Counted from the first letter of the stretch, positions 33,254-48,409 are shown. The stretch is 64,000 bases of DNA from an uncultured delta proteobacterium (GCA_963815835.1 CAWFIF010000001.1:1571479-1635478); one strand, 5' to 3'. Numbers and translations are program-made. Notes: a model not told the origin generated them from the letters alone.

Positions 33254-34735
33254 CTAGAAGGCGTAGATCAGTACGCCTTGCAGGGTGTCCTGCCCCTTCC
33301 ACTCGTGCTGAACGTCGTTGACTGGATTGACGAACTCATTGTTGAAGAAAACATGGTGATTGGACTGGTCGTGGCGGTATTCTGCGCGGACCAGGAATCC
33401 AGTCACGTCGGGTACTTTGTAGGTGAGCGTCTGAGTGATATCCCAGAGCGTCTGGTGAACCCCGCTACGCGCGCCGTCTTCATCGTCGAACATTTCGCCG
33501 CGGGTCGCGGATTCCCATGCGTTCCAATCGTAGACGATATACTGCGCTACACCCTGCCAGGTCGCACCATGCCCATTTTGAAATTTGCCCGTCTCGCTTC
33601 CGTACAGATACTCGGTGGCGAAAGTCGTATTGGGCAGGAAGGCCGGCTTGATGGTGACGATCGGATCCACCGCTCCGCGATACGAATTGGAATGTCCAAG
33701 CTGGTTAGGCCCGTAAATTCCATTGAGCACAAGGGCCACCGACTTGTCTTTGTTATTCAGGGTTAACTCGGTTTCGTAGTTGGGACCCCCATTGTTAAAG
33801 TTCCCAGGATTGTCCCATCCGTTGTTGAGCCCGCCGGTCGCCGCGAAGTAGTCGTTAAAGGTGTACGAGGCCCTTACTCCAGTCTGGGTAAAGGGACTAC
33901 CCAGGCCGAAGATATAGTCGCGTGATTCGTTGTAATTCTGGTTGGTATAGGTGGGAATCACTTCCTGATCCAGAAGTGTCACAAACCTGCCTGCCTGTAA
34001 GCTGATCCCCGAACCCACCGGAAGCGTGTAAGTCAGATAGTACTGAGTTGGATCGATCCAACGGCCCGAGAATCCATCCGGCGGCGAATTGGAGAAATGC
34101 GTACTGGCGTTAAGCGTTTCCGCAACCTGGCCGACATTGATGTCGGTTACGAATCCAACCGTGCCGTCCTTTTCGATGTGCAGATTTCCCTGGTTGAGCT
34201 GGAAGCCGTCGTTGTTATCGAAAGTACGGAGGTTGTTGGTTTCGTGGATCGGCTGGTTGAAGTTGTGGTCGTAGCCCGCATCGACCAGGCCATGGATGCT
34301 CACGCCGAGGTTGGTCGAGAGATCCTTTTTGGTCTGCGCGAGGTCGCCCTCAACCACCGCGACATGCTGGCCAATCGTGGCCGGACTCGGAGCGGCCGCG
34401 GGCGAAGGAGCATTCGCGGGCGCGGCCGGTGCCGCCACGGCCAACTGCGTCTTCATGTCCTTGATCTGCGACACCAGCTCAGCCTGCTGCTTTTGCATTT
34501 CCTCCAATTGCCTGCTGAGCGCGTCGATCTTCTTCTGCTGTTCAGACTCCGCGGTCGTCGTAGTTGTGGTGGTCGTTGTGGTGGTTGTTTTGCTGCTCCT
34601 CTTCTTATGATGGTGCGTCGGCGTCGGCGGCGCCTCCTGCGCCCATGCTCCTCGCAGCCCAGGCGCAAGCGCCGTGCCGACCGCGATCAGCGTCACGACG
34701 GCAAGCCGTGTCGTCCTCCCAGTTGACGTGGTCAT
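33254..34735 (-). CDS. Outer-membrane porin-like beta-barrel protein with N-terminal coiled coil and a 12-Thr tract
   Basis: Signal peptide MTTSTGRTTRLAVVTLIAVGTALAPGLRGAWA, then KKRSSKTTTTTTTTTTTTAESEQQ, then the coiled coil IDALSRQLEEMQKQQAELVSQIKDMKTQL, then a long beta-rich region ending ..GVLIYAF (terminal Phe). Confidence 0.5.
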   Translation of the reverse strand: MTTSTGRTTRLAVVTLIAVGTALAPGLRGAWAQEAPPTPTHHHKKRSSKTTTTTTTTTTTTAESEQQKKIDALSRQLEEMQKQQAELVSQIKDMKTQLAVAAPAAPANAPSPAAAPSPATIGQHVAVVEGDLAQTKKDLSTNLGVSIHGLVDAGYDHNFNQPIHETNNLRTFDNNDGFQLNQGNLHIEKDGTVGFVTDINVGQVAETLNASTHFSNSPPDGFSGRWIDPTQYYLTYTLPVGSGISLQAGRFVTLLDQEVIPTYTNQNYNESRDYIFGLGSPFTQTGVRASYTFNDYFAATGGLNNGWDNPGNFNNGGPNYETELTLNNKDKSVALVLNGIYGPNQLGHSNSYRGAVDPIVTIKPAFLPNTTFATEYLYGSETGKFQNGHGATWQGVAQYIVYDWNAWESATRGEMFDDEDGARSGVHQTLWDITQTLTYKVPDVTGFLVRAEYRHDQSNHHVFFNNEFVNPVNDVQHEWKGQDTLQGVLIYAF

Positions 34736-35022
34736 TCTCACTCTCGTGTCTCCTCCCATGCGGCGATGGCCGCGTTGTCGTGCACCCACACACGTAGGGC
34801 GTGCTCGTTGCTAGAGCCGGAGCGCTTGTGTTCAAGATTCATACCGCGCTGTAATCAGGTCTCGTCGTGCAAATATGTGCTGACTATTGATGAATCGAAA
34901 AGCCAACTAATCGGGCTGACGCCCGCAAAGCATGCATGTGCCAAGCAATTATGCAGGGCTGGGAATCGTGCATTTTGCAGCGTTACACATCCAGATTGAT
35001 ATGCGAGGGAGGCAGGAAACGG

Positions 35023-37403: not shown

Positions 37404-37943
37404 ATGCAGCGCGAACTCGTCGATCAAATCGCACGCCCGCTCGCATGGCCGCGCCGATTCACGGTGGTGGCGCTCTTCTTCCTCGCCACCGTGCTCTGCT
37501 ATGTCGATCGGGTCAGCATCTCGGTCGCGATCATTCCGCTCTCGCGCGATCGCGGCTACGACGGCGCCGCGCAGGGAATCGTCCTGTCCGCATTTTTCTG
37601 GGGCGATCTATGGCCACAACTGCTGGGCGGATGGATGTCCGACCGCTTCGGCGGACGGCGCGTGCTCGCGGCCGGCGTCGCGGTATGGTCGATAGCGACG
37701 TTGCTCACGCCGCCGGCCTCGGTGGCTTTCAGCCTGCTGATCGCGATGCGCGTTCTGCTCGGCCTCGGCGAGGGCGTCAACTTCCCGGCAATTCACAGCA
37801 TCACCGCGCGATGGACGCTGGCCGAGGAGCGCTTGCCTTGCGGCAACCTGCTCGAATTGGAGCGCGCCCTCAGCAGGTCGGTGGCGACATGGGTCGAAGC
37901 GGTCTTTGAGGGCTTTGCTCGATGCCGCTCAGACGGTTGCTAG
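37404..37943 (+). pseudogene. Truncated N-terminal fragment (about 4 TM) of an MFS transporter (anion:cation-symporter-like)
   Basis: ..LFFLATVLCYVDRVSISVAI..GIVLSAFFWGDLWPQLLGGWMSDRFGGRRVL..LLGLGEGVNFPAIHSITARW.. is an MFS N-domain. It then diverges into non-membrane sequence and stops. A full MFS transporter would be about 430 aa. Confidence 0.55.
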
Positions 37944-37980: not shown

Positions 37981-38421
37981 GATCGGTCCACGTAGTGTCG
38001 GCTTAGCCATCGATCTCTTTTTCCGCTCGCTCGCGGTGTCGCGCGCGGCGACGGCTTCGCGGTCGTACTCTCGGGCAGTGGCTCGGACGGAGCGCTCGGT
38101 TCGCGGGCGGTCAAGGAAGCGGGCGGGCTGGTGCTGGTGCAGGATCCCCACGAGGCAGCGCATGGCGACATGCCGCGCGCGGTAATTGAGACTGGCTTGG
38201 CCGACGTAGTCCCACCGGTCAGGAAGTTGGTCGAGCGTCTCGCCGAGTTGGCGCGCAAAAAGGAGCGCTTTAGCGGCCTGGTGCGCGCAGACAAGGAATC
38301 GAATCCGATAGGACTTGATGAGGAGGTGGCGCTTCGCGCCATCTTCGATCTGCTATTTGCGGCCTCGGGCCACGACTTCTCCTTCAGAAGAAGTTCTAGC
38401 AGCGCGGTCGTGCGTGCTTAG
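37981..38421 (+). pseudogene. Degraded fragment of a chemotaxis methylesterase (CheB-type, possibly a CheB/CheR fusion)
   Basis: ..GDGFAVVLSGSGSDGALGSRAVKEAGGLVLVQDPHEAAHGDMPRAVIETGLADVVPP.. matches the CheB methylesterase C-terminal core. A preceding ..IDLFFRSLA.. is in another frame. There is no N-terminal receiver or catalytic Ser/His region. Confidence 0.5.
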
Positions 38422-38476: not shown

Positions 38477-41400
38477 GTGAGCCGCGCGGTGATAGAAGAG
38501 CCTCCCGGTGAGGACGCGATGCGCTGCCCGACGTGCGGGACCGAAAACCCGGCATCCAAGAAATTCTGTGGTGATTGCGGCTCACCGCTGAGCAATCGCT
38601 GCCCGAAATGCGGCGCCGACAGTCCGCTCGACAAGCGATTCTGCGGCGATTGCGGAACCGCGCTCCCGGCCAATAGCTCTACACCCGCACCAGATGCTGC
38701 CACTGCGGAGTCTCACCGAACGGCCGAGGGCGAGCGCCGTCATCTGACAGTACTGTTCTGCGATCTGGTCAACTCAACCGGAATCTCCGCTCATCTCGAT
38801 CCCGAGGATTGGCACGACCTGGCCGCGGAGTATCAGCACAACGCCGCCGAGGCGGTGACGCGTTTCGGCGGCTATGTTGCCAAGTATCTCGGCGATGGGC
38901 TCCTGGTGTTCTTCGGCTACCCGCAGGCGCACGAGGACGATCCGGAGCGGGCGGTGCGCGCCGGACTGGCGATCGTTGATGGGATCGCGGCACTGAATGA
39001 TCGACTCGCCGACAAACCGGGCGCACTAAAGCTCTCGGTTCGCGTCGGTATTCATACTGGCGCGGTGGTCGTCGCGCAGGGTGGCGGCAAGGAAGCCGAC
39101 GTGTTCGGCGCCGCGCCCAATATCGCCTCGCGGGTCCAAGGCGTGGCGGAGCCCGATACCGTGATGATGACTTCGGCCGTGGTCGAGCTGGTGTCGGGCC
39201 GGTTCGTGGTCGAGGATCGCGGCGCTCATGAACTGAAGGGCATCGAGCAGCCGGTACGGATCTTTCGCGCCGTATCCGCCGGCCTGGCAAGAGGCCGCGG
39301 ACGGAGCTTCTCCGCCCACGAGCTCGCGCCATTCGTCGGACGCGACGACGAGATGCATCTGCTTTTGAGCCGCTGGAAACGGGTGCGTGACGGCCAGGGC
39401 CAGCTGGTGATCGTGACGGGGGAGCCTGGGATCGGTAAGTCGCGCCTGATGGAGGAGTTTCGAAGGCACATCAAAGGCGAGCCACATCTCTGGATCGAAT
39501 GCGCGTGCGCGCTGTTTTTCGCCAATTCGCCCTTCCACGCTGTTACCCAGATGCTTGACCAAGGCCTGGGTTGGCGCGGCGACGAGAGTCCGCAGGAGCG
39601 CGTGAGCGTTCTCGAACGGGTGCTGGAGCTATCCGGGATGAAAACCGGTGACGCGGTGCCTCTAATCGCGGAGATGCTGAACCTTCCGATCCCGGAGAAA
39701 TATCCGGCGCTGAGCTTCTCGGCGGAGCAAAGACGCAGGCGGCTGCTCGGCCTGTTGGCGGCATGGGTGTTCAGCGCGACGGGAAATCAGCCGCTGGTGA
39801 TCGTCATGGAGGATCTGCACTGGGTCGATCCATCGACGGTTGAGCTGATTCAGACCCTGGTCGAGCAGGGGGCCACGGCGCCGCTGATGCTGCTCTGCAC
39901 CGCGCGCCCCGAGTTCCGCTCGCCATGGCCGATGCGGGCGCATCACGCGCAGCTCACGCTCAATCGCCTCGATCAGCGCCAGACGCTGGAGTTGGTGGCC
40001 GCCGTGATCTCCCGCGCCGGGGTGACCCGGGAGCTGATCGACGCGGTGGTCAATCGCACCGACGGCGTGCCCTTGTTCGCCGAAGAACTGACGCGGCTGC
40101 TGCTGGAGGGCGACGGGCGCTCAGTGGTGAAGGATATCCCGGCCACGCTGCGGGACTCTTTGATGGCACGACTGGACCGGCTGGGGCGGGCCAAAGAAGT
40201 CGCGCAGGTTGCCGCGGTGATCGGACGAGATTTTTCCTATGCGTTGCTTCAGGCCGTCGCGCGGACGCCTGAAGCGGAATTGCAACTGACGCTGACGAAG
40301 CTGGCCGACGCCGAGTTGCTATACGTGCGCGGCATTCCGCCCGAGGCTACCTACCAGTTCAAACACGCGTTGATCCAGGACACCGCCTACGAAGCGTTGC
40401 TCAAGAGCAAGCGCAAGGAATTGCATCTCCGCGTCGCCAGGGCGATCAGCGAAAAATTCCCTCCGCTAGCGGAAGCGCAGCCAGAGATTCTCGCGCGGCA
40501 CTGGTCAGAAGCCGGTGAGACGGAGCCGGCGATCGCCGCATGGACCAAGGCGGCCCGCGCGGCCGAGGCGCGGCATGCGCTCAAGGAGGCCGAAGAGGAT
40601 TGCCGTCAGGCGCTCGCGATACTTAAAAATCTGCCGGAATCGCGGGAGCGCGACACCAGCGAGTTCACGCTCCTGACCCTGTTGACCTCAGTGCTGCACC
40701 GGAGCAGGGGATATTCCACCGGCGACTTGGGCGAGGTGCTCGAGCGCGCTCGTGTTATTGCGGAGAGGACCGGCAACCTGATCCTGCTCGTTCTACAGGG
40801 AATGGCGGCGTGGGTCGCCGTCCTGGTCTCAGGCGACTACTCCCGCGCCCAGGCGCTGGCTGATCAGCTACTCGACCTGGCCCAGCGCGAGGGCAGCGAC
40901 ACGAGTCTCGGCTTCGCTCACGCGGCTCAAGTGTCGTCACGCTTCTATCGCGGGGATCTCATCGGACTCGAGGAGCACTTTGCTCGCCTGCGCACCTTCT
41001 CCGAAGCTCCTGGTTTAAGAGACTATCCCGGTGCAGTTATGGGCCCAACGGGCTACGCGACTGAGGGCCTGTGGATCCTGGGTCATCCCGAAAAAGCCCG
41101 CAGCCGGATCGCCGACGCGATAGGTCGGGCCCGCAACGAGAAGAAAGCCTTCGACATTGCGGTCGGCCGAGATCTCGAGGCCTACCTTTGCCGCTGGCTC
41201 AAGGAACCTCAGCTGTGCGCAGATGCGGCCAGCGAAACCGTCGCGATTTCCGAAGAGCATGGCTTTTCGGACTACCGTGTTTACGCCTCCAAGATTCTGG
41301 GCTGGGCGCGAGCGCAGCTTGGCAAACCGGATGAAGGAGCGGCGCTCATCCGGGAAAATATGGCAGTCCAGGTCGAGGCCGGGGTACGCAACGATCTCAC

Positions 41401-41791
41401 CAATTCTCTCACCTTGTTAGCCGAGGCTCAGGCGTTGGACGGCAAGATCGATGAGGCCCTGCTCACGCTCGACGAGGCGCTGGTGGCGAACCCGGAAGAA
41501 CTTGTCTTTCGGCCAAACATCCTGACGTGGCGCGGACAACTGCGCCTCAGAACTGACAAGTTCGAATTGGCCGAAGCCGACTTCCGTGACGCGATCGCAT
41601 TAGCAGGGCAGATGAGTGCAAAGTCGCTCGAGCTGCGCGCGACGATGAGCCTCGCGCGGCACCTGCGCGACACCGGTCGTCGCGACGAGGCAGGCGCGAT
41701 GCTGGCCGAGATCTACAATTGGTTCACCGAGGGCTTCGACACCGCCGACCTGAAGGACGCTAAGGCGCTGCTCGACGAATTAAGCCAGTAA
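38477..41791 (+). CDS. Multidomain signalling protein: double zinc-ribbon + class III adenylyl/guanylyl cyclase + STAND-type P-loop NTPase + TPR repeats
   Basis: CPTCGTENP..CGDCG..CPKCGAD..CGDCG zinc ribbons. Cyclase core ..RRHLTVLFCDLVNST..YLGDGLLVFFGYPQAHEDDPERAV..VGIHTGAVVV... Walker A ..VIVTGEPGIGKSRL... Long helical/TPR C-terminus. Alternative start at MRCPTCG (38519). Confidence 0.8.
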   Translation: MSRAVIEEPPGEDAMRCPTCGTENPASKKFCGDCGSPLSNRCPKCGADSPLDKRFCGDCGTALPANSSTPAPDAATAESHRTAEGERRHLTVLFCDLVNSTGISAHLDPEDWHDLAAEYQHNAAEAVTRFGGYVAKYLGDGLLVFFGYPQAHEDDPERAVRAGLAIVDGIAALNDRLADKPGALKLSVRVGIHTGAVVVAQGGGKEADVFGAAPNIASRVQGVAEPDTVMMTSAVVELVSGRFVVEDRGAHELKGIEQPVRIFRAVSAGLARGRGRSFSAHELAPFVGRDDEMHLLLSRWKRVRDGQGQLVIVTGEPGIGKSRLMEEFRRHIKGEPHLWIECACALFFANSPFHAVTQMLDQGLGWRGDESPQERVSVLERVLELSGMKTGDAVPLIAEMLNLPIPEKYPALSFSAEQRRRRLLGLLAAWVFSATGNQPLVIVMEDLHWVDPSTVELIQTLVEQGATAPLMLLCTARPEFRSPWPMRAHHAQLTLNRLDQRQTLELVAAVISRAGVTRELIDAVVNRTDGVPLFAEELTRLLLEGDGRSVVKDIPATLRDSLMARLDRLGRAKEVAQVAAVIGRDFSYALLQAVARTPEAELQLTLTKLADAELLYVRGIPPEATYQFKHALIQDTAYEALLKSKRKELHLRVARAISEKFPPLAEAQPEILARHWSEAGETEPAIAAWTKAARAAEARHALKEAEEDCRQALAILKNLPESRERDTSEFTLLTLLTSVLHRSRGYSTGDLGEVLERARVIAERTGNLILLVLQGMAAWVAVLVSGDYSRAQALADQLLDLAQREGSDTSLGFAHAAQVSSRFYRGDLIGLEEHFARLRTFSEAPGLRDYPGAVMGPTGYATEGLWILGHPEKARSRIADAIGRARNEKKAFDIAVGRDLEAYLCRWLKEPQLCADAASETVAISEEHGFSDYRVYASKILGWARAQLGKPDEGAALIRENMAVQVEAGVRNDLTNSLTLLAEAQALDGKIDEALLTLDEALVANPEELVFRPNILTWRGQLRLRTDKFELAEADFRDAIALAGQMSAKSLELRATMSLARHLRDTGRRDEAGAMLAEIYNWFTEGFDTADLKDAKALLDELSQ

Positions 41792-41843
41792 GTGCGCCAC
41801 GAAAAATCACGGTAGCAATCCATCGTAGCGCGACCTGCTCGGC

Positions 41844-42455
41844 TCATGAATGGGTGAGGTAGGTCAGGCGCGCTTCGAGTAACTCATGCAGAACCTGGTC
41901 CAGTTGCGGGACTTGAAGCAAGCCAGTCAAATCAACCGGGTCTATTCTGATTACCTCGGAGTCGCTCAGCGCTCTGACTGTATAGTGCTGGCGTCCGTGG
42001 GCCAGCAACGCATGGACGCCGAAGTGATCTCCCGGTCCAAATTTTCGAATCTCGCCCGTTTCCGGGCCCGCCGCGGTTCCTTCAAGTTGGCCGGACCGCA
42101 CCAGGTAAATGAAGTCGCTGGGTTCGCCTGCCGAATAGACCGCGTCGCCAGTGCGATAGTGTTGGAGCAACAAGGTCTTGCCTCCGAATGCCGCCGCGAT
42201 CAGGAACATTGCGATTCCAATCACTAGAAGTGGCTGCAGGAACAAGAATGTCAGCAGTAGCACTGGGATCAATGTCAGCCATGCAACGACTCCGATCAGG
42301 GCCGGGATGGCGACTGTGACGCGCGCGACCCTGGTCAGAGTTACAGGCCAATTACCGCGAGCGATTCGGCGCGAACCCAGACTTGGGGGGATAGCGTGAG
42401 AACTTTCGGTAGTCACCCGTTGGATGCTCCTATCATATGACCCGATGGATGACAC
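41844..42455 (-). CDS. Small membrane protein with two N-terminal TM helices and a C-terminal cyclic-nucleotide-binding (CAP_ED) domain
   Basis: TM segments ..VAIPALIGVVAWLTLIPVLLLTFLFL.. and ..LLVIGIAMFLIAAAF... cNMP domain ..GDAVYSAGEPSDFIYLVRSGQLEGTAAGPETGEIRKFGPGDHFGVHALL... The start is uncertain; the ORF overlaps the upstream NapC-like stop by 43 nt. Confidence 0.6.
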   Translation of the reverse strand: MSSIGSYDRSIQRVTTESSHAIPPSLGSRRIARGNWPVTLTRVARVTVAIPALIGVVAWLTLIPVLLLTFLFLQPLLVIGIAMFLIAAAFGGKTLLLQHYRTGDAVYSAGEPSDFIYLVRSGQLEGTAAGPETGEIRKFGPGDHFGVHALLAHGRQHYTVRALSDSEVIRIDPVDLTGLLQVPQLDQVLHELLEARLTYLTHS

Positions 42456-43132
42456 ATCGTGCAGGAAATGGTTCCTTTCAGGATCAACGCCGAGACCTTT
42501 CCCTGCGTATCAAGATGCAGGCGCTGAGAGAGAAAGAACGAAGAGTCGATGTGACACTTCAAACAAAGTTCGTTGGGGAACGGCCCTCGCAAATGGATTG
42601 GCGTCGTATACCAGCCGGTCACGTACCGGTAGGCATCATTCAGGCCTTGCAACTTCGCACGCATCGTACCATGCACTCCGTAAGTGGCATGGCACGAGTA
42701 ACAGGCGGTCCCGGGTTGAGTGGGAGCGAAGTTAAGCTTGAAATGAAGCGCCGATAGCGATTGGCTCTTCGGGTCCGTCACATCATGAACATAGGGCTGC
42801 ATCGCGACATGACACGAGCCACAGAAGTTTTCCTGCTTGGCGTATTCGAAGATGGTGAAATTGGCGAACGGCAGTAGCATCGCCGGCAGGAACACCAATC
42901 CGAGGGTGTTGATGAAAAGGGCCCGGCCGTGAGTCACGCGCTGAGGAAAAAAAATCGAACCCAGCACTACAAACACCAGAATCGCGGTGCTGAGGGTCAA
43001 AGACAGTACGATTCCCCAATCCACCCAGGTGCCCCATCCCTCACCCAGGATGTGGCCGGAATGGATGAAAGCGAGGAGACCCGGATGAGTCGTTGCCCAT
43101 CGCTCGATCGGAGTTATGGTGTCAGTCGGCAT
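42413..43132 (-). CDS. Membrane-anchored tetraheme cytochrome c, NapC/NirT/NrfH-like
   Basis: N-terminal TM helices, then four CxxCH sites (CGSCH, CYSCH, CLKCH, CTMCH). Confidence 0.7.
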   Translation of the reverse strand: MPTDTITPIERWATTHPGLLAFIHSGHILGEGWGTWVDWGIVLSLTLSTAILVFVVLGSIFFPQRVTHGRALFINTLGLVFLPAMLLPFANFTIFEYAKQENFCGSCHVAMQPYVHDVTDPKSQSLSALHFKLNFAPTQPGTACYSCHATYGVHGTMRAKLQGLNDAYRYVTGWYTTPIHLRGPFPNELCLKCHIDSSFFLSQRLHLDTQGKVSALILKGTISCTMCHPSGHMIGASNG

Positions 43133-43158: not shown

Positions 43159-43533
43159 TTACTTTCCGAGCGACCGAATGTAGGCAACCAGATCGGCGAT
43201 ATCGGCGTCACTCAGCTGACCCTTAAACGCCGGCATCAATGGCGAAGCCTTAAGCGCCGTGCCTCCGTTGTTGATGACGTCGGTCAGCTTTTGATCAGTG
43301 AATTGTGCCATCTTGGCCTTATCGGTCCATGGCACCGGTGGAACCTGCACACCAAGGGTTGCCAACAGCACGCCGTCGCCGGCACCGGTTGCGCCGTGGC
43401 AGCCGGCGCATTTCGCGGCGGCGATTCGTGCCCCGTTGCTCGCATCCGCGGCGAAGGCTGCCGATACGGGTGCAAACGCGGCGATCATGAGAGCGGCAAT
43501 CACGCGATTCATGTATTCCCTCCATTGCTCCAT
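43159..43533 (-). CDS. Monoheme class-I c-type cytochrome
   Basis: Signal peptide, then ..AAKCAGCHGATGAGDG.., with a C-terminal ..DIADLVAYIRSL.. typical of small soluble cytochromes c. Confidence 0.8.
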   Translation of the reverse strand: MEQWREYMNRVIAALMIAAFAPVSAAFAADASNGARIAAAKCAGCHGATGAGDGVLLATLGVQVPPVPWTDKAKMAQFTDQKLTDVINNGGTALKASPLMPAFKGQLSDADIADLVAYIRSLGK

Positions 43534-43542
43534 CGATCGAAT

Positions 43543-44937
43543 TCAGAATTCATATATCAATTCGAGATTGGTCCCGTAGTCAAATCGATCGCCCGCCAGC
43601 GAAGTGTTTTGATTGCGCACGCCGAGAATTGTCAGCCTCACCTCGCTACCATATAAGAGGCCCCGGCGCTTGAGATCGTTCAGCGTATCCCCCGGCATCA
43701 CGAATTTGCTGACATCGGTCTGGATCTGCAAGGCCAAACCGACCTGATCGTTGTCGGTTGACTCGTTATCGATCAGCCATCCGAACTCCGGGGCAAAGGT
43801 AATGTGGCCGGTGGGATTGATGATATCTCCAACCACGCCGCCGACGGTACCAGAGGCGCGCGGGTTCAGCTGAGGAGTTGCGACCAAACGATCGAAAGTG
43901 AACAGGATGCCCTCGCGGTTGAGCGCCGAACCCTGCACCGACGGTGCGATCCAGTTGCGTGTCGCGCCAAAGATATTGCTGTAGAGCTGCGTGCCGAGGA
44001 CGCCACGTTGAGCCTCGAGCACGAACAATTCTCCGTCACTCGCGGTAGAGTTGGCCGTGCTGCCCATTGCGCGGAATGACACGCTGCCGTTGTAGCTGAA
44101 GCTGCGCGTTACGGATACCGCCCAAAAGTTGCGGTTCAGGTTCATCTGCGCGCCGGGAACCCTGCCGTTCGCATAGCTAAGCGCCCAGCTACCTTCGATG
44201 AAGTAGTCGCTCCAATTGAAATTGAAGTTGACCCCCATCACTTTCTTTTCAGATTCGCGCCTGCTTGGTGTGGTGAGGGTCAGTCCGGGCTGCGTCTCAC
44301 CCAAAGTCAGAAAGTACAGGACATTGAAATTGGAGAGATTGCCGAGCTGGATGTTGTTCTTGGCGATCGAAAATCCGTCAAAGAAGTTGTTGAACCATAG
44401 TCCGTTGTGCAGGAAGAGCGGAATGCGTCCCACCGACAGCGTCATGTCGAGTGGCAACCTGTCATTGGGGCTCAGCCAGTTAAACGGCGTCCCCTCGAAG
44501 AACAATGCTTGTGGCGTTGCGCCGAAGCTGCCGGTCCATCCGTGATCGTTGCCAAATTTGTAGAAGGTTGGTTCCCGGTCTCCGTACTCCAGCGGCCGGA
44601 ATAGCGCGAAAACGCGCTGGGTGGCGGTTAGCTGTAAATTGGTTTGGAGGTTGACCTCGGGAACGATAAGGTCATTGTGCTGATTCTGCAGTTGATCGTC
44701 GAGTATCTGCACCCTTGCGAGGCCGTTAACATCGAGCCGTGGAGAAAGCTCCTCGCCAAACAGAGAAAACCCAGGATCCCAGATCTTGCCCGGCGACAGG
44801 AAGTCGCTGCCAAATATGGTGACCGCCCATCCCGATTTCGGCCACATCATGCTCAACGAGAGCAACACAACCAGCCACACGCACGAATATTTTCGGGTGG
44901 CTGCCATGTTAAATCGAGGTGACATTGCTGGGCGCAT
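43543..44937 (-). CDS. Outer-membrane beta-barrel protein (porin-like), within the cytochrome operon
   Basis: Signal peptide ..YSCVWLVVLLSLSMMWPKSGWA. Alternating amphipathic beta-strand pattern and Asn/Gly/Tyr/Phe-rich. Ends ..LELIYEF. Confidence 0.6.
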   Translation of the reverse strand: MRPAMSPRFNMAATRKYSCVWLVVLLSLSMMWPKSGWAVTIFGSDFLSPGKIWDPGFSLFGEELSPRLDVNGLARVQILDDQLQNQHNDLIVPEVNLQTNLQLTATQRVFALFRPLEYGDREPTFYKFGNDHGWTGSFGATPQALFFEGTPFNWLSPNDRLPLDMTLSVGRIPLFLHNGLWFNNFFDGFSIAKNNIQLGNLSNFNVLYFLTLGETQPGLTLTTPSRRESEKKVMGVNFNFNWSDYFIEGSWALSYANGRVPGAQMNLNRNFWAVSVTRSFSYNGSVSFRAMGSTANSTASDGELFVLEAQRGVLGTQLYSNIFGATRNWIAPSVQGSALNREGILFTFDRLVATPQLNPRASGTVGGVVGDIINPTGHITFAPEFGWLIDNESTDNDQVGLALQIQTDVSKFVMPGDTLNDLKRRGLLYGSEVRLTILGVRNQNTSLAGDRFDYGTNLELIYEF

Positions 44938-44946
44938 GATGCCGAT

Positions 44947-46593
44947 CTACTTTGCCAGCGAGACGCTTCCTTCATAGGTCTTCATATCGACGATCCTCAG
45001 TTTGGGTATGACATCAGCAACCCCGAGGTCGCGCAGGAAGTGCGCCGGGAAATTCCGGTAGCGCAACCGCACGCTCAACCTCAGCGGACCGGTCGCATCG
45101 ACGGGTACGCTTACACGGTACGTGGCGGTTTTGCTCTTGAGCGGCGGAATACCTTCCTTGAACACTCGTCCCGCGAATGGGAAGCCTTGCAGGAAAGTTG
45201 GGTTCGGCGGGGGAGCGAGAAACGGCGCGGGACCGAGAAGCCGATTCGTGGTGCTGATAGCTTCCGATTGGGTGCCGAGGAAGTTGGTGATTACAAAGGT
45301 AGCTTCGAGGTTAAGAAGATCGCTGTCATATGGCAGGGTCCCATCTTGAACCGCCATGCTCTCGTAGTCGCGCAAGTCCTGGTACTGATCATAGTCGCCC
45401 GACTCATAGATCTTTTCCCCACGCCCATCCAGCACTTTTATGTCAAGCCAGACCTGGCGCTCGGAGGCAAAGCCCGTCGGCAGATTGTGACCTGCGCCCG
45501 AGTTGGTAACAGTCACGTCGAAGCGCATCGTGGAACCGGGACGGACGCTGTCGGGGTGGCTTACATCGATCGTCGCAGCGTTGCGCAGGAGGGTTTCGCG
45601 CTCAGAATCGAGATGCGTCTGGAGTTCCGCAAATCCCTTATCGCCGAGGAAGAGCTCATTCTTGCCGAAGTCCTTTATCACCGAATAATCAGGGCCGGTG
45701 AACTTATGACTCGATTTATGGCGGCGTGGCGCTGTGGGAAAAATACCGTTGTTTACGATGTAGCCCTCGGGCAGCTCCGAGTGAGGAGTCGGCTTACCGG
45801 CTTCCGGACCCATATGGCAGTCTTCGCAGACGATACCACGCCGCGCGTACGGGCCATTCTTCCACTCACTGTATGCCTCTTCCAGACGGAAGCCGTCCGG
45901 AGTGAAGACGTCATGGCATGCGCCGCATAGGTGTCCCGAGGTAAACAGCGGAGAGTAACGCGACTTGTGCGGCGTCTTGATGAGACGAAGGGACGGATCG
46001 GATGGAGCGCCCGGTTCGTCGGAGCCATAGTATGGCCCATACACCGTCGGTTCCGGATCGCCCGGAACCGGAAGCGGAATCTGACCAGTGGCTTCGACGA
46101 AGTTAGCGCTCTGCGAATGGCACGTCATGCAAGTGACGCTCTCCATCGCGATCGAGGAGCGTTTGCTGTTCGATTCGATGGCGCTCTCGCCCGAGGAAAT
46201 TCCGATCCCGCTATGACAGCGCACGCAAAAGGTGCCGAGACTCCCCCCTGTACCATTCAACACGAAAGAATTGAATGCGATGAACACCGGACTGTGTTGC
46301 GCATACGCATGCATCGAGGTCGCCCACTCGTTGTACTGAGTAGGATGGCAGGTCTGACAGGTCGTCGCGGGAAGGAAGACGGTTTGCTTGGGACTCTTCG
46401 GAGGCGGAACTGTTGCAAGCCGAGTCAGTCCAGGACTTGTGCCGCAAGCATAAAACACCCCGACCACGGCAAGTGCCGCGAGAGTGGCCGCGATCGCCCG
46501 ATAGTTTACCCCTTTCCGTCGCGGGGACGCATGTGGGCGCCGACCCGCACCACGGGGAACCTCATCAGCGAACGGTTTGCTCCGGTTACTCAT
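44947..46593 (-). CDS. Pentaheme c-type cytochrome (N-terminal membrane anchor/signal)
   Basis: Five CxxCH sites (CQTCH, CVRCH, CMTCH, CGACH, CEDCH) in 548 aa, with an N-terminal hydrophobic segment AIAATLAALAVVGVFYAC. Confidence 0.8.
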   Translation of the reverse strand: MSNRSKPFADEVPRGAGRRPHASPRRKGVNYRAIAATLAALAVVGVFYACGTSPGLTRLATVPPPKSPKQTVFLPATTCQTCHPTQYNEWATSMHAYAQHSPVFIAFNSFVLNGTGGSLGTFCVRCHSGIGISSGESAIESNSKRSSIAMESVTCMTCHSQSANFVEATGQIPLPVPGDPEPTVYGPYYGSDEPGAPSDPSLRLIKTPHKSRYSPLFTSGHLCGACHDVFTPDGFRLEEAYSEWKNGPYARRGIVCEDCHMGPEAGKPTPHSELPEGYIVNNGIFPTAPRRHKSSHKFTGPDYSVIKDFGKNELFLGDKGFAELQTHLDSERETLLRNAATIDVSHPDSVRPGSTMRFDVTVTNSGAGHNLPTGFASERQVWLDIKVLDGRGEKIYESGDYDQYQDLRDYESMAVQDGTLPYDSDLLNLEATFVITNFLGTQSEAISTTNRLLGPAPFLAPPPNPTFLQGFPFAGRVFKEGIPPLKSKTATYRVSVPVDATGPLRLSVRLRYRNFPAHFLRDLGVADVIPKLRIVDMKTYEGSVSLAK

Positions 46594-46900: not shown

Positions 46901-48409
46901 TCATACAAGTTCCGCAGGCTCGACGGTGCGCGAAAGGGTCTCCGCCGGTGTGGGGCCGCGACGCTGGCCGAAGAAGGGCTTGAGAATCAGGTAGACCACG
47001 TCGCGTATCCGCATGAAGCGCGTGAAACGGCGCAGGAGCCGAACCGTCTGCAGCGGATAATGAAGCAGCTTGTAACGGAATATTCTGCGGAAACCCGCGT
47101 TGCGCTCGCGGTTGATCACCTCGCCCGGCAGGCAGGTCCGATCGATCTCGGAGCACTTGAAAAACTTGAACCAGTCGCGGTCCTCGTCCACCAGGTTGCG
47201 GCGGATATATTCCTGCCACAACGGGGTGCCGCGATAGACACACAGGCGGTTGAAGTTGAAGGTGTCGAGCGGAAGCCGCGCGGCAAAATCAAAAGTCGCT
47301 CGCAGGTCGGCCACGGTCTCATCGGGGTTGCCTACCACGAAGAAGCCGTGCACGATTTCGATCCCCGCCCGCTTGGCATTCGTGACCGCGGTCTCAACTT
47401 GCTTAAGGGTTTGCTCCTTCTCGAGCCGGTCGAGGACCTTCTGACTGCCGCTCTCGATCCCGAACATCACGGTGCGGCAATTGGCCTTTGCCATCAACGG
47501 ATACAGATGCTCGGCGACCGAATCGACTCTGCCCTCGCAACCCCAGTGGATAGCCGGACCGCTCTCGATTAGCCCGTTGCAGATGGCTTCGATCCGCCTC
47601 GGTTGCAATAGGAAATGATCGTCGACAAAGTACACCGCACCGTAGCCGTGTTCCCTCAGATGATTGAATTCCGCGAGCACATGCTGATGGCTGCGGGCGC
47701 GCCATTTATGCTGGTTGAAGCCCGGAATGTCGCAGTAAACACAATGGCGTGGGCATCCGCGCGACGCCTGCATCGTGGTGAAACGGTCCATTGACAGAAC
47801 CGCGGGCACATCCAGCGGCATCGACTCGACGAAGTCCAGCGCGAGGCTTTCGCGGTCCGGAAAAGGCCACTGGTCGAGATCGCGCTCGACCGCGCGGTCC
47901 GGATTGTTTACCACCTGGCCGTCTCGCGCCCAGGTGAGCCCGGCGACCGCCGCGGGATTGTCGAGCTGCTCAAGCAGGTCGAGAATCAACTGCTCGCCGT
48001 CACCGCGGCAGACAAAGTCCACCTCGCTGCATTGCAGTTTCACCAGCGGCGCGTTCAACGTCGCGAACACGCCGCCGATGGCGACTTTGACCTTGGAATC
48101 GGCGGCGCGGATCTGGCGGGCGAGGATCCTGGCGTACGGATAGCTGGTGGTGCTCAGAAAACTCAACCCGACCAGTTGCGGCCGTCGCATGCGAATCTGC
48201 TCGATGATGACCTGGTTTGGAGTCGCGGGGTTGGCCTGATCGAACATCACGCATTCATGGCCGGCACGCTTTAGCACCGCGGAGAGCGACATGATTCCGA
48301 TCGGTGGGAACCCCATGATGCGCAGGTTGCCGTTTTTCGCGCGCCCGGCTGTCGGCACGGCGTAAAATTGCGGATCGCGAACATGGATTAGAAATACCAA
48401 CATGGCCAC
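46901..48409 (-). CDS. B12-binding-domain radical SAM protein
   Basis: N-terminal cobalamin-binding Rossmann fold (..GFPPIGIMSLSAVLKRAGHECVMFD..VGLSFLSTTSY..VAIGGVFAT..), then ..ASRGCPRHCVYCDIP.. (CxxxCxxC). Confidence 0.8.
   Translation of the reverse strand: MAMLVFLIHVRDPQFYAVPTAGRAKNGNLRIMGFPPIGIMSLSAVLKRAGHECVMFDQANPATPNQVIIEQIRMRRPQLVGLSFLSTTSYPYARILARQIRAADSKVKVAIGGVFATLNAPLVKLQCSEVDFVCRGDGEQLILDLLEQLDNPAAVAGLTWARDGQVVNNPDRAVERDLDQWPFPDRESLALDFVESMPLDVPAVLSMDRFTTMQASRGCPRHCVYCDIPGFNQHKWRARSHQHVLAEFNHLREHGYGAVYFVDDHFLLQPRRIEAICNGLIESGPAIHWGCEGRVDSVAEHLYPLMAKANCRTVMFGIESGSQKVLDRLEKEQTLKQVETAVTNAKRAGIEIVHGFFVVGNPDETVADLRATFDFAARLPLDTFNFNRLCVYRGTPLWQEYIRRNLVDEDRDWFKFFKCSEIDRTCLPGEVINRERNAGFRRIFRYKLLHYPLQTVRLLRRFTRFMRIRDVVYLILKPFFGQRRGPTPAETLSRTVEPAELV

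Follow-up and report, generated by a model that had tools for sequence, protein, structure and literature searches.

A STAND-type class III cyclase gene abuts, probably by accident, a cytochrome operon that ends in a two-helix cyclic-nucleotide-binding-domain gene in an uncultured delta proteobacterium

We analyzed a 64,000-nucleotide stretch of DNA from an uncultured delta proteobacterium (GCA_963815835.1, CAWFIF010000001.1:1571479-1635478; hereafter the window) and, within it, the interval 38477-42455, where the gene for a large multidomain cyclase (plus strand) and the gene for a small membrane protein with a cyclic-nucleotide-binding (CNB) domain (minus strand) met tail to tail. The convergent stop codons were separated by a spacer of 52 bp (41792..41843), and both this distance and the convergent, non-operonic arrangement agreed with a first-pass annotation of the same DNA. 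No terminator-like site was found in the spacer, and a shared bidirectional terminator was rejected. The cyclase domain and the CNB domain each occurred once in the whole window. The first-pass annotation had as its headline idea that the two proteins are a local producer and receiver of a cyclic nucleotide, with the fallback that the CNB gene ends, and belongs to, a cytochrome operon. Our analysis favored the fallback, indicating that the interval probably contains two units of separate function brought together by chance, and that the cytochrome operon ends in the gene for the small protein, which is translationally coupled to the gene before it.

An open reading frame (ORF) for the small protein was present at 41844-42455 on the minus strand, and its first annotation as a protein of 203 amino acids (aa) with two transmembrane helices (2TM) and a CNB domain was right in architecture and wrong in length. 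All full-length homologues (8/10) started at MTTE, which corresponds to GTG 42416 in the window; the gene therefore spans 41844..42416 (-) and the protein has 190 aa, not 203. A GGAG was located about 10 nt upstream of this GTG, and the start codon overlapped the stop codon of the preceding tetrahaem cytochrome gene by 4 nt (GTGA). The CNB domain was recognized with 61.9 bits by the cNMP_binding model (PF00027; cutoff 27.5), and a hydrophobic stretch covered residues 27-84 of the 190-aa protein. A structure model based on 56 sequences, with a predicted local distance difference test score (pLDDT) of 70.7, contained helices at 23-48 and 51-78, a CNB barrel (strands 82-158) and then C-terminal helices. 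It replaced an earlier model (9 sequences, pLDDT 65), in which the hairpin had been drawn as a single long helix. The layout was accordingly read as an N-terminal tail, a membrane hairpin at about 23-78, a CNB beta-barrel at 80-160 and C-terminal helices. When the barrel was searched with Foldseek, it was matched with probability 1.00 to Thermus thermophilus CAP, Mycobacterium tuberculosis CRP, GlxR and the CNB domains of PKA, PKG and HCN; NtcA was also among the fold relatives. Five Arg/Lys residues versus one acidic residue were counted in the N-terminal tail, and the turn between the helices was uncharged; under the positive-inside rule this predicts a cytoplasmic location for both termini and for the CNB domain.

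Five genes on the minus strand made up the operon, in the order pentahaem cytochrome, candidate outer-membrane barrel, cytochrome c, NapC/NirT-like tetrahaem cytochrome and 2TM-CNB protein. The first gene (44947..46593) encoded a 548-aa c-type cytochrome with five CXXCH motifs, which matched the Cytochrome_C7 and C554 models; its C-terminal half (about 290 aa) was haem-free, with 23 residues of the ExtKL (seleno)protein model as the one model match of note. The second product (43543..44937, 464 aa) had a signal-like N-terminus and no long hydrophobic helix, ended in ...LELIYEF, and had no match in Pfam, NCBIfam or the PDB sequences; these features make it a candidate, possibly novel, outer-membrane beta-barrel that might be paired with the pentahaem cytochrome. 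It was conserved at 86-94% among relatives. A 124-aa monohaem cytochrome c with a signal peptide and one CXXCH (43159..43533; PF00034, PF13442) came third. The fourth gene (42413..43132) encoded a membrane-anchored tetrahaem c-type cytochrome of 239 aa resembling NapC, NirT and NrfH, with CXXCH at 104, 144, 190 and 224 and weak matches to the NrfH and NapC models. Two N-terminal hydrophobic helices, with the basic loop PQRVTHGRA between them, preceded its first haem motif. Neither the pentahaem nor the tetrahaem protein, nor the 464-aa protein, had a significant sequence match among PDB chains. Within the 2TM-CNB protein the mean identity was 88% in the hairpin, 75% in the CNB barrel and 51% in the C-terminal helix. 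Across loci L001-L010 the identity of the whole protein was 61-91%, compared with 83-97% for the tetrahaem cytochrome, 86-94% for the candidate barrel and 83-94% for the pentahaem cytochrome, showing that the 2TM-CNB protein changes more quickly than its neighbors in the operon.

The CNB gene directly followed a homologous NapC/NirT-like tetrahaem gene in 8/8 independent contexts, the window included (31-91% identity). In every locus looked up (L001, L004, L006, L008 and L010), the gene of a full-length homologue closed an operon of the same five genes and showed the 4-nt overlap. Two distant subfamilies, whose CNB proteins were 31-34% identical to that of the window, kept the association in other forms. 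In L021-24 the CNB gene was located 2 nt past a 214-aa Cytochrom_NNT (NapC/NirT) gene with a cytochrome c gene ahead of it, and in L025, of the L025-26 subfamily, it overlapped by 1 nt a gene for a 350-aa fusion of cytochrome c with a NapC/NirT-like domain. The tetrahaem homologues of L021 and L025 were respectively 48 and 40% identical to the window's protein. The monohaem cytochrome c adjoined the tetrahaem gene in every context, being fused to it in L025. Genes for the pentahaem and 464-aa proteins were absent from the loci of both distant subfamilies; this leaves cytochrome c, the tetrahaem membrane cytochrome and the 2TM-CNB protein as the conserved core. In L025 (5949-8385) the 350-aa fusion gene and the 2TM-CNB gene were followed by a gene for a second CNB protein of 192 aa with an N-terminal CNB domain (residues 9-94), and PQQ dehydrogenase and GAF-histidine kinase genes were found further downstream.

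A profile search of 1.84 billion representative proteins recovered distant proteins of about 190 aa that matched across the hairpin and the CNB domain, and an alignment-based search returned at least 176 clusters of the CNB family, several named Binataceae and one NC10. When genomes and metagenomes were scanned with the CNB alignment, each scan gave one new locus; L011 and L013 were the contigs of L001 and L010, respectively, and L012 was rejected as an unrelated CNB domain. The scans yielded few new loci, and the co-occurrence sample therefore stayed small. No description of a NirT-type cytochrome linked to a CNB-domain partner was found in the open-access texts searched, which is weak evidence of novelty.

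No cyclase gene was adjacent to the CNB gene in any of the seven relatives' contexts, including all six with enough flanking sequence (0/6), and tblastn with the cyclase gave no match in any CNB-homologue locus. Downstream of the CNB gene were an Amidohydro_2 gene (amidohydrolase, within the 10-kb flank) in L001, a glycosyltransferase-like PMT gene in L010, PGA_cap in L021 and the second CNB protein in L025. The 576 bp in L006 and 411 bp in L008 that followed the CNB gene contained only short unrelated ORFs without a cyclase match. In L004 the operon was 93-96% identical to the window at the DNA level, and the region upstream of the operon was 90% identical. When the 79 bp past the CNB stop codon of L004 were compared with the window, the similarity of 0.61 did not exceed that of shuffled sequence (shuffle mean 0.55, maximum 0.66); as far as this 79-bp tail goes, synteny seems to stop where the CNB gene does, and the spacer is an apparent breakpoint. 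Four cyclase homologues (61-67% identity, on contigs of 7.6 kb to 1.7 Mb) had unrelated and mutually different neighbors, and no CNB or cytochrome genes were seen near any of them. The G+C content at third codon positions (GC3) was 0.63-0.70 in all five operon genes, the CNB gene included, and 0.756 in the cyclase gene; among six other genes measured, five had values of 0.735-0.80 and a BBP2 porin gene had 0.705. Together with the differing surroundings in L001, L010 and L004, this composition is consistent with the operon being a mobile or acquired cassette. The co-occurrence check thus left the producer and receiver pair unsupported, no testable relative having both genes together. By contrast, the tie of the CNB gene to the cytochrome operon was strongly supported by the eight contexts, the GTGA overlap and the shared GC3.

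The phosphate-binding cassette of the CNB domain, FGVHALLAHGRQHYTVRA (residues 132-149; 41970..42023, -), was non-canonical in HMMER alignments to PKG and PKA CNB domains and in family alignments. In CNB domains generally, a Gly-Glu contacts the ribose 2'-OH and an Arg contacts the cyclic phosphate (PMC11224242). In the window's cassette, Val stood in for the canonical Glu and Gln for the canonical Arg, with a clade-invariant Arg one residue earlier. Throughout the window's clade the Glu was replaced by Val, Ile or Met, and the canonical Arg position was Gln, His or Tyr. Three cassette types were distinguished in the CNB family alignment: a canonical type A, FGE[ML]ALL..APR[ST]AT; a type B with Asp and a one-residue insertion, FGD.ALLRRNLP[HR][RH]; and a type C, that of the window's clade. 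Cassettes were fully degenerate in the intermediate relatives P0131, P0137, P0142 and P0145. The canonical Glu being lost and the Arg shifted, binding of a cyclic nucleotide monophosphate (cNMP) by the window clade is doubtful; binding of cyclic AMP (cAMP) or cyclic GMP (cGMP) by its CNB domain is possible, though the less probable outcome, and its ligand may be other than a cyclic nucleotide. However, Gly141, Arg142 and Thr146 of the cassette were invariant within the clade, as were many barrel residues, indicating that the site still looks selected. We also considered whether Arg142 could be the cassette Arg proper, in a loop that has become shorter. This was kept as a possibility; it needs a deletion before and an insertion after the Arg, and the ungapped register was preferred by both HMMER and MAFFT. 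Judged by their cassettes, relatives with the canonical form probably respond to cAMP or cGMP, and the ancestral 2TM-CNB protein probably sensed one of the two. The family thus offers a natural series of canonical, Asp-variant and Glu-less binding cassettes on one scaffold.

On the other side of the spacer, an ORF of 1104 aa from GTG 38477 was present at 38477-41791 (+), as first annotated. An identical database protein of 1090 aa (P0011; source contig 3.4 Mb) begins at Met15, that is, at ATG 38519, giving a stand-alone gene at 38519..41791. The four domains originally assigned (zinc ribbon, cyclase, STAND NTPase and TPR) were borne out by Pfam. The double zinc ribbon DZR (PF12773, 47.6 bits) covered residues 17-60 (38525..38656) and contained eight cysteines (C17, C20, C31, C34, C42, C45, C56 and C59), each present in 103-111 of the 121 aligned family sequences, the remainder being nearly all gaps. 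The class III catalytic domain (Guanylate_cyc, PF00211) covered residues 89-257 (38741..39247) with 71.9 bits against a cutoff of 21.9. It was followed by an AAA_16 NTPase module (PF13191, 94.3 bits) at residues 285-472 (39329..39892), in which Walker A (GEPGIGKS, 315-322) and a Walker B-like motif (VIVMEDLHWVD, 441-451) were intact. A C-terminal helical-repeat region of the TPR or MalT-like kind, presumably the sensor arm, was placed with approximate boundaries at 40574..41788 on the basis of the alignment to TIGR03903, of homologues bearing PF17874 (TPR_MalT), and of weak Pfam matches to TPR_12, TPR_2 and TPR_7 at residues 785-807 and 1014-1083, each below its own cutoff.

The catalytic residues of the cyclase were examined by alignment to the guanylyl cyclase Cya2 (2w01), its engineered Glu-to-Lys adenylyl form (6fht) and CyaB (3r5g). 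The set was complete, with D96, D140, K136, D208, R189, N215 and R219. The metal-binding pair was Asp in nearly all of the 121 family sequences (D96, in FCDLVNST, in 116; D140, in LGDG, in 119), the transition-state residues N215 and R219 (in PNIASR) were retained in 115 and 119, respectively, and Arg189 was conserved across the alignment. An inactive domain, which would have spoken against the first-pass annotation's proposal, was therefore not what we found. K136 was opposite the Glu of Cya2 and the Lys of 6fht, and D208 was opposite the Gly of Cya2 and the Thr of CyaB. In class III cyclases a Lys/Asp pair specifies ATP and a Glu/Gly-type pair specifies GTP. With the full catalytic set and the Lys136/Asp208 pair, the substrate check gave the ATP type, and the cyclase therefore looks functional and ATP-specific. 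The position of Lys136 was Gln in 22 of the 121 aligned sequences (P0011-P0130 homologues), and that of Asp208 was Glu in 15 and Asn in 6; paralogues may differ in substrate. More than 7,600 proteins belonged to the family at E<=1e-50 (search saturated). The top 120 matches were 53-67% identical; most had the zinc ribbon-cyclase-AAA_16-TPR layout, about a dozen had no ribbon, and several carried the names Candidatus Binatus or Binataceae. The cyclase is thus one unremarkable member among the very many paralogues of this family. Nothing relevant was found on Binatia adenylate cyclases in the literature (open-access texts only).

If the two units are separate, each would work on its own. In the cyclase unit, some ligand of the TPR arm would drive nucleotide-dependent oligomerization of AAA_16, by analogy with STAND proteins, and this would bring the cyclase domains into active dimers that make cAMP. 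In the cytochrome unit, the 2TM-CNB hairpin would pack against the two membrane helices of the tetrahaem cytochrome in the inner membrane, and the cytoplasmic CNB domain would adjust, or merely stabilize, electron flow from the quinone pool to periplasmic cytochromes. Docking of the hairpin is proposed because no other part of the protein was as well conserved, as would be expected of a specific contact within the membrane more than of a passive anchor. Several observations weigh against this two-unit reading. cAMP is diffusible, and the CNB domain could be fed in trans by any cyclase of the genome, this one among them. The sample was small, with eight CNB and four cyclase contexts that were mostly on short metagenome contigs, and the closest relative, L004, offered just 79 bp downstream of the CNB gene. 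Further, the Cytochrom_NNT match (PF03264) of the window's tetrahaem cytochrome, at 23.9 bits, was just under the cutoff of 24.1 (the PF03264 match of its L021 homologue carried no mark), and the confidence of the 2TM-CNB monomer model was only moderate at a pLDDT of 70.7.

We tentatively suggest, as a possibility that falls well short of the two-unit reading in likelihood, that the 2TM-CNB family might serve NapC/NirT-type membrane cytochromes as a dedicated subunit for sensing a second messenger. In that case a cytoplasmic ligand would gate, post-translationally, the passage of electrons from the quinone pool into periplasmic or outer-membrane cytochrome chains; this ligand would be cAMP or cGMP in the canonical-cassette subfamily and something else in the window's clade. 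The CNB domain would then exert direct, allosteric control over an entry point of respiratory or extracellular electron transfer, a mode we did not find described. Should the CNB domain regulate the cytochrome, the module would be a simple, testable case of a second messenger controlling a respiratory electron-entry module rather than transcription. The part worth following is the conserved, translationally coupled cytochrome/2TM-CNB module, a modestly novel variant of known parts. The adjacency of a cyclase and a CNB protein is insufficient to call them a signaling pair, above all in lineages with expanded cyclase families.

A dedicated local pair, in which cAMP from the STAND cyclase acts specifically on the neighboring 2TM-CNB protein, would account for two genes 52 bp apart, for a cyclase that looks active and ATP-specific next to a CNB fold, and for these being the only cyclase and the only CNB domain in 64 kb. 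However, the genes are convergent and not co-transcribed, their codon composition differs, and the cassette of the window's clade is without the canonical Glu and has its Arg displaced. Adjacency was absent in 6/6 testable CNB contexts and 4/4 cyclase contexts and seemingly also in the 93-96% identical L004, making such a pair quite improbable. Still less credible was an abortive-infection system like Pycsar or Pucsar, with the cyclase sensing phage and a membrane cNMP-sensing effector killing the cell; we consider it very improbable indeed. The likeness had been drawn to PycTM in the first-pass annotation and consists in a class III-type cyclase near a small protein with membrane helices and a CNB fold. 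PADLOC PycC models matched the cyclase domain (best E = 4.8e-16), and the PDB matches included the Pycsar cytidylate cyclase 8jsf and PycTIR 8jsk, but all of these reflect generic class III cyclase and CNB-fold homology. The window's cyclase is a fusion of 1,100 aa with a STAND module and its specificity residues are Lys/Asp (ATP) instead of the pyrimidine type, while the two genes form no operon and their adjacency is not conserved. No PADLOC effector model matched the small protein, which is conserved within a respiratory cytochrome operon and not in a defense island. The PycTM/PucTM effectors are three-TM proteins of the pJV1-spdB3 family and not 2TM proteins with a CNB domain (preprint 10.64898/2026.08.12.744502), and the known effectors that bear a CNB domain carry TIR. 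Membership in Pycsar/PycTM was ruled out on the PADLOC results, the published effector description and the gene context.

An immune role could also be given to the cyclase protein by itself, as a STAND sensor with a cyclase effector and not a housekeeping signaling protein. The family is hugely expanded with variable genomic context, and predicted NTPase-based conflict systems include some with a cNMP cyclase as the effector domain (PMC7159879). However, no partner effector or defense genes were nearby in 5/5 contexts (the window and the four homologues), and PADLOC gave no system-level match beyond generic cyclase homology, leaving this role unlikely. Loss of ligand binding deserves more weight. 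The CNB fold of the window's clade may perhaps be vestigial, the protein serving as a ligand-free structural or assembly subunit of the tetrahaem cytochrome, and we regard this as possible to about the same degree as the sensing-subunit proposal. The replacement of the canonical Glu by Val, Ile or Met and of the Arg by Gln, His or Tyr, the fully degenerate cassettes of the four intermediate relatives, the better conservation of the hairpin than of the CNB domain, and the faster evolution of the protein than of its partners (61-91% versus 83-97%) all point that way. Against it, the invariant Gly141-Arg142, Thr146 and barrel residues argue for a site still under selection, which might accommodate a phosphate-containing ligand, bound in a shifted register, or some other ligand, as NtcA and CLP do with this fold.

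Among described proteins, mycobacterial adenylyl cyclases of the Rv0386, Rv1358 and Rv2488c type are similar to the cyclase; these multidomain proteins combine a cyclase with an ATPase, TPR and a LuxR helix-turn-helix (HTH). In both, the class III cyclase is N-terminal and precedes an AAA_16-type NTPase and helical repeats, and a logic of nucleotide-dependent oligomerization is presumably common to them. The window's protein differs in its additional N-terminal double zinc ribbon and its canonical Lys/Asp pair; Rv0386 has a Gln/Asn specificity pair, of which the Gln in 22/121 family sequences is reminiscent. No HTH was among the 14 Pfam matches at E<=0.01, so that a C-terminal LuxR/GerE HTH is absent. 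The zinc ribbon had been described at first as replacing the LuxR HTH of relatives. The ribbon is indeed N-terminal, but to speak of a replacement is imprecise: the mycobacterial relatives carry the HTH at the C-terminus, and in TIGR03903 the N-terminus is a kinase. TIGR03903 (TOMM system kinase/cyclase fusion) was the closest curated model, its whole cyclase-NTPase-repeat portion aligning with residues 67-1059 at E = 1e-149. Membership was rejected, since the score of 500.7 bits was below the cutoff of 705.75 and the kinase part (model positions 1-264) was unmatched, the cyclase having its zinc ribbon in that place; no TOMM biosynthesis genes were seen near it.

The CNB domain of the small protein has the same fold as those of CRP/CAP and of PKA, PKG and HCN. 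Unlike them, it comes with no DNA-binding, kinase or channel module and hangs on a two-helix membrane hairpin, and its cassette is without the Glu that contacts the ribose 2'-OH and has its Arg one residue out of register. The operon likewise recalls the NapC/NirT/NrfH/CymA quinol dehydrogenases and porin-cytochrome conduits in bringing together a membrane-anchored tetrahaem cytochrome, a periplasmic cytochrome c, a further multihaem cytochrome and a candidate outer-membrane barrel. One N-terminal membrane helix is typical of the NapC/NirT/NrfH family, whereas two hydrophobic helices precede the haem motifs in the window's tetrahaem cytochrome. In the described members of these groups, no dedicated membrane partner with a CNB domain was found (open-access texts).

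Two apparent gene remnants were present just upstream of the cyclase gene. An N-terminal MFS_1 fragment at 37404-37943 (+) covered profile positions 2-119 of 347, and a C-terminal CheB methylesterase fragment at 38131-38421 (+) covered positions 139-174 of 174 with 21.1 bits, below the 24-bit cutoff; these remnants suggest a past rearrangement at the locus. On the far side of the interval, the operon was immediately preceded on its own strand by a B12-binding radical SAM gene (46901-48409, -). This gene was also present at the edge of the L004 contig and was not seen in the other CNB loci. The porin gene included in the GC3 comparison (33254-34789, -) encoded a 511-aa protein with a strong match to BBP2 (OmpL-like beta-barrel porin) and a coiled-coil-like N-terminal region, and is unrelated to the findings above.

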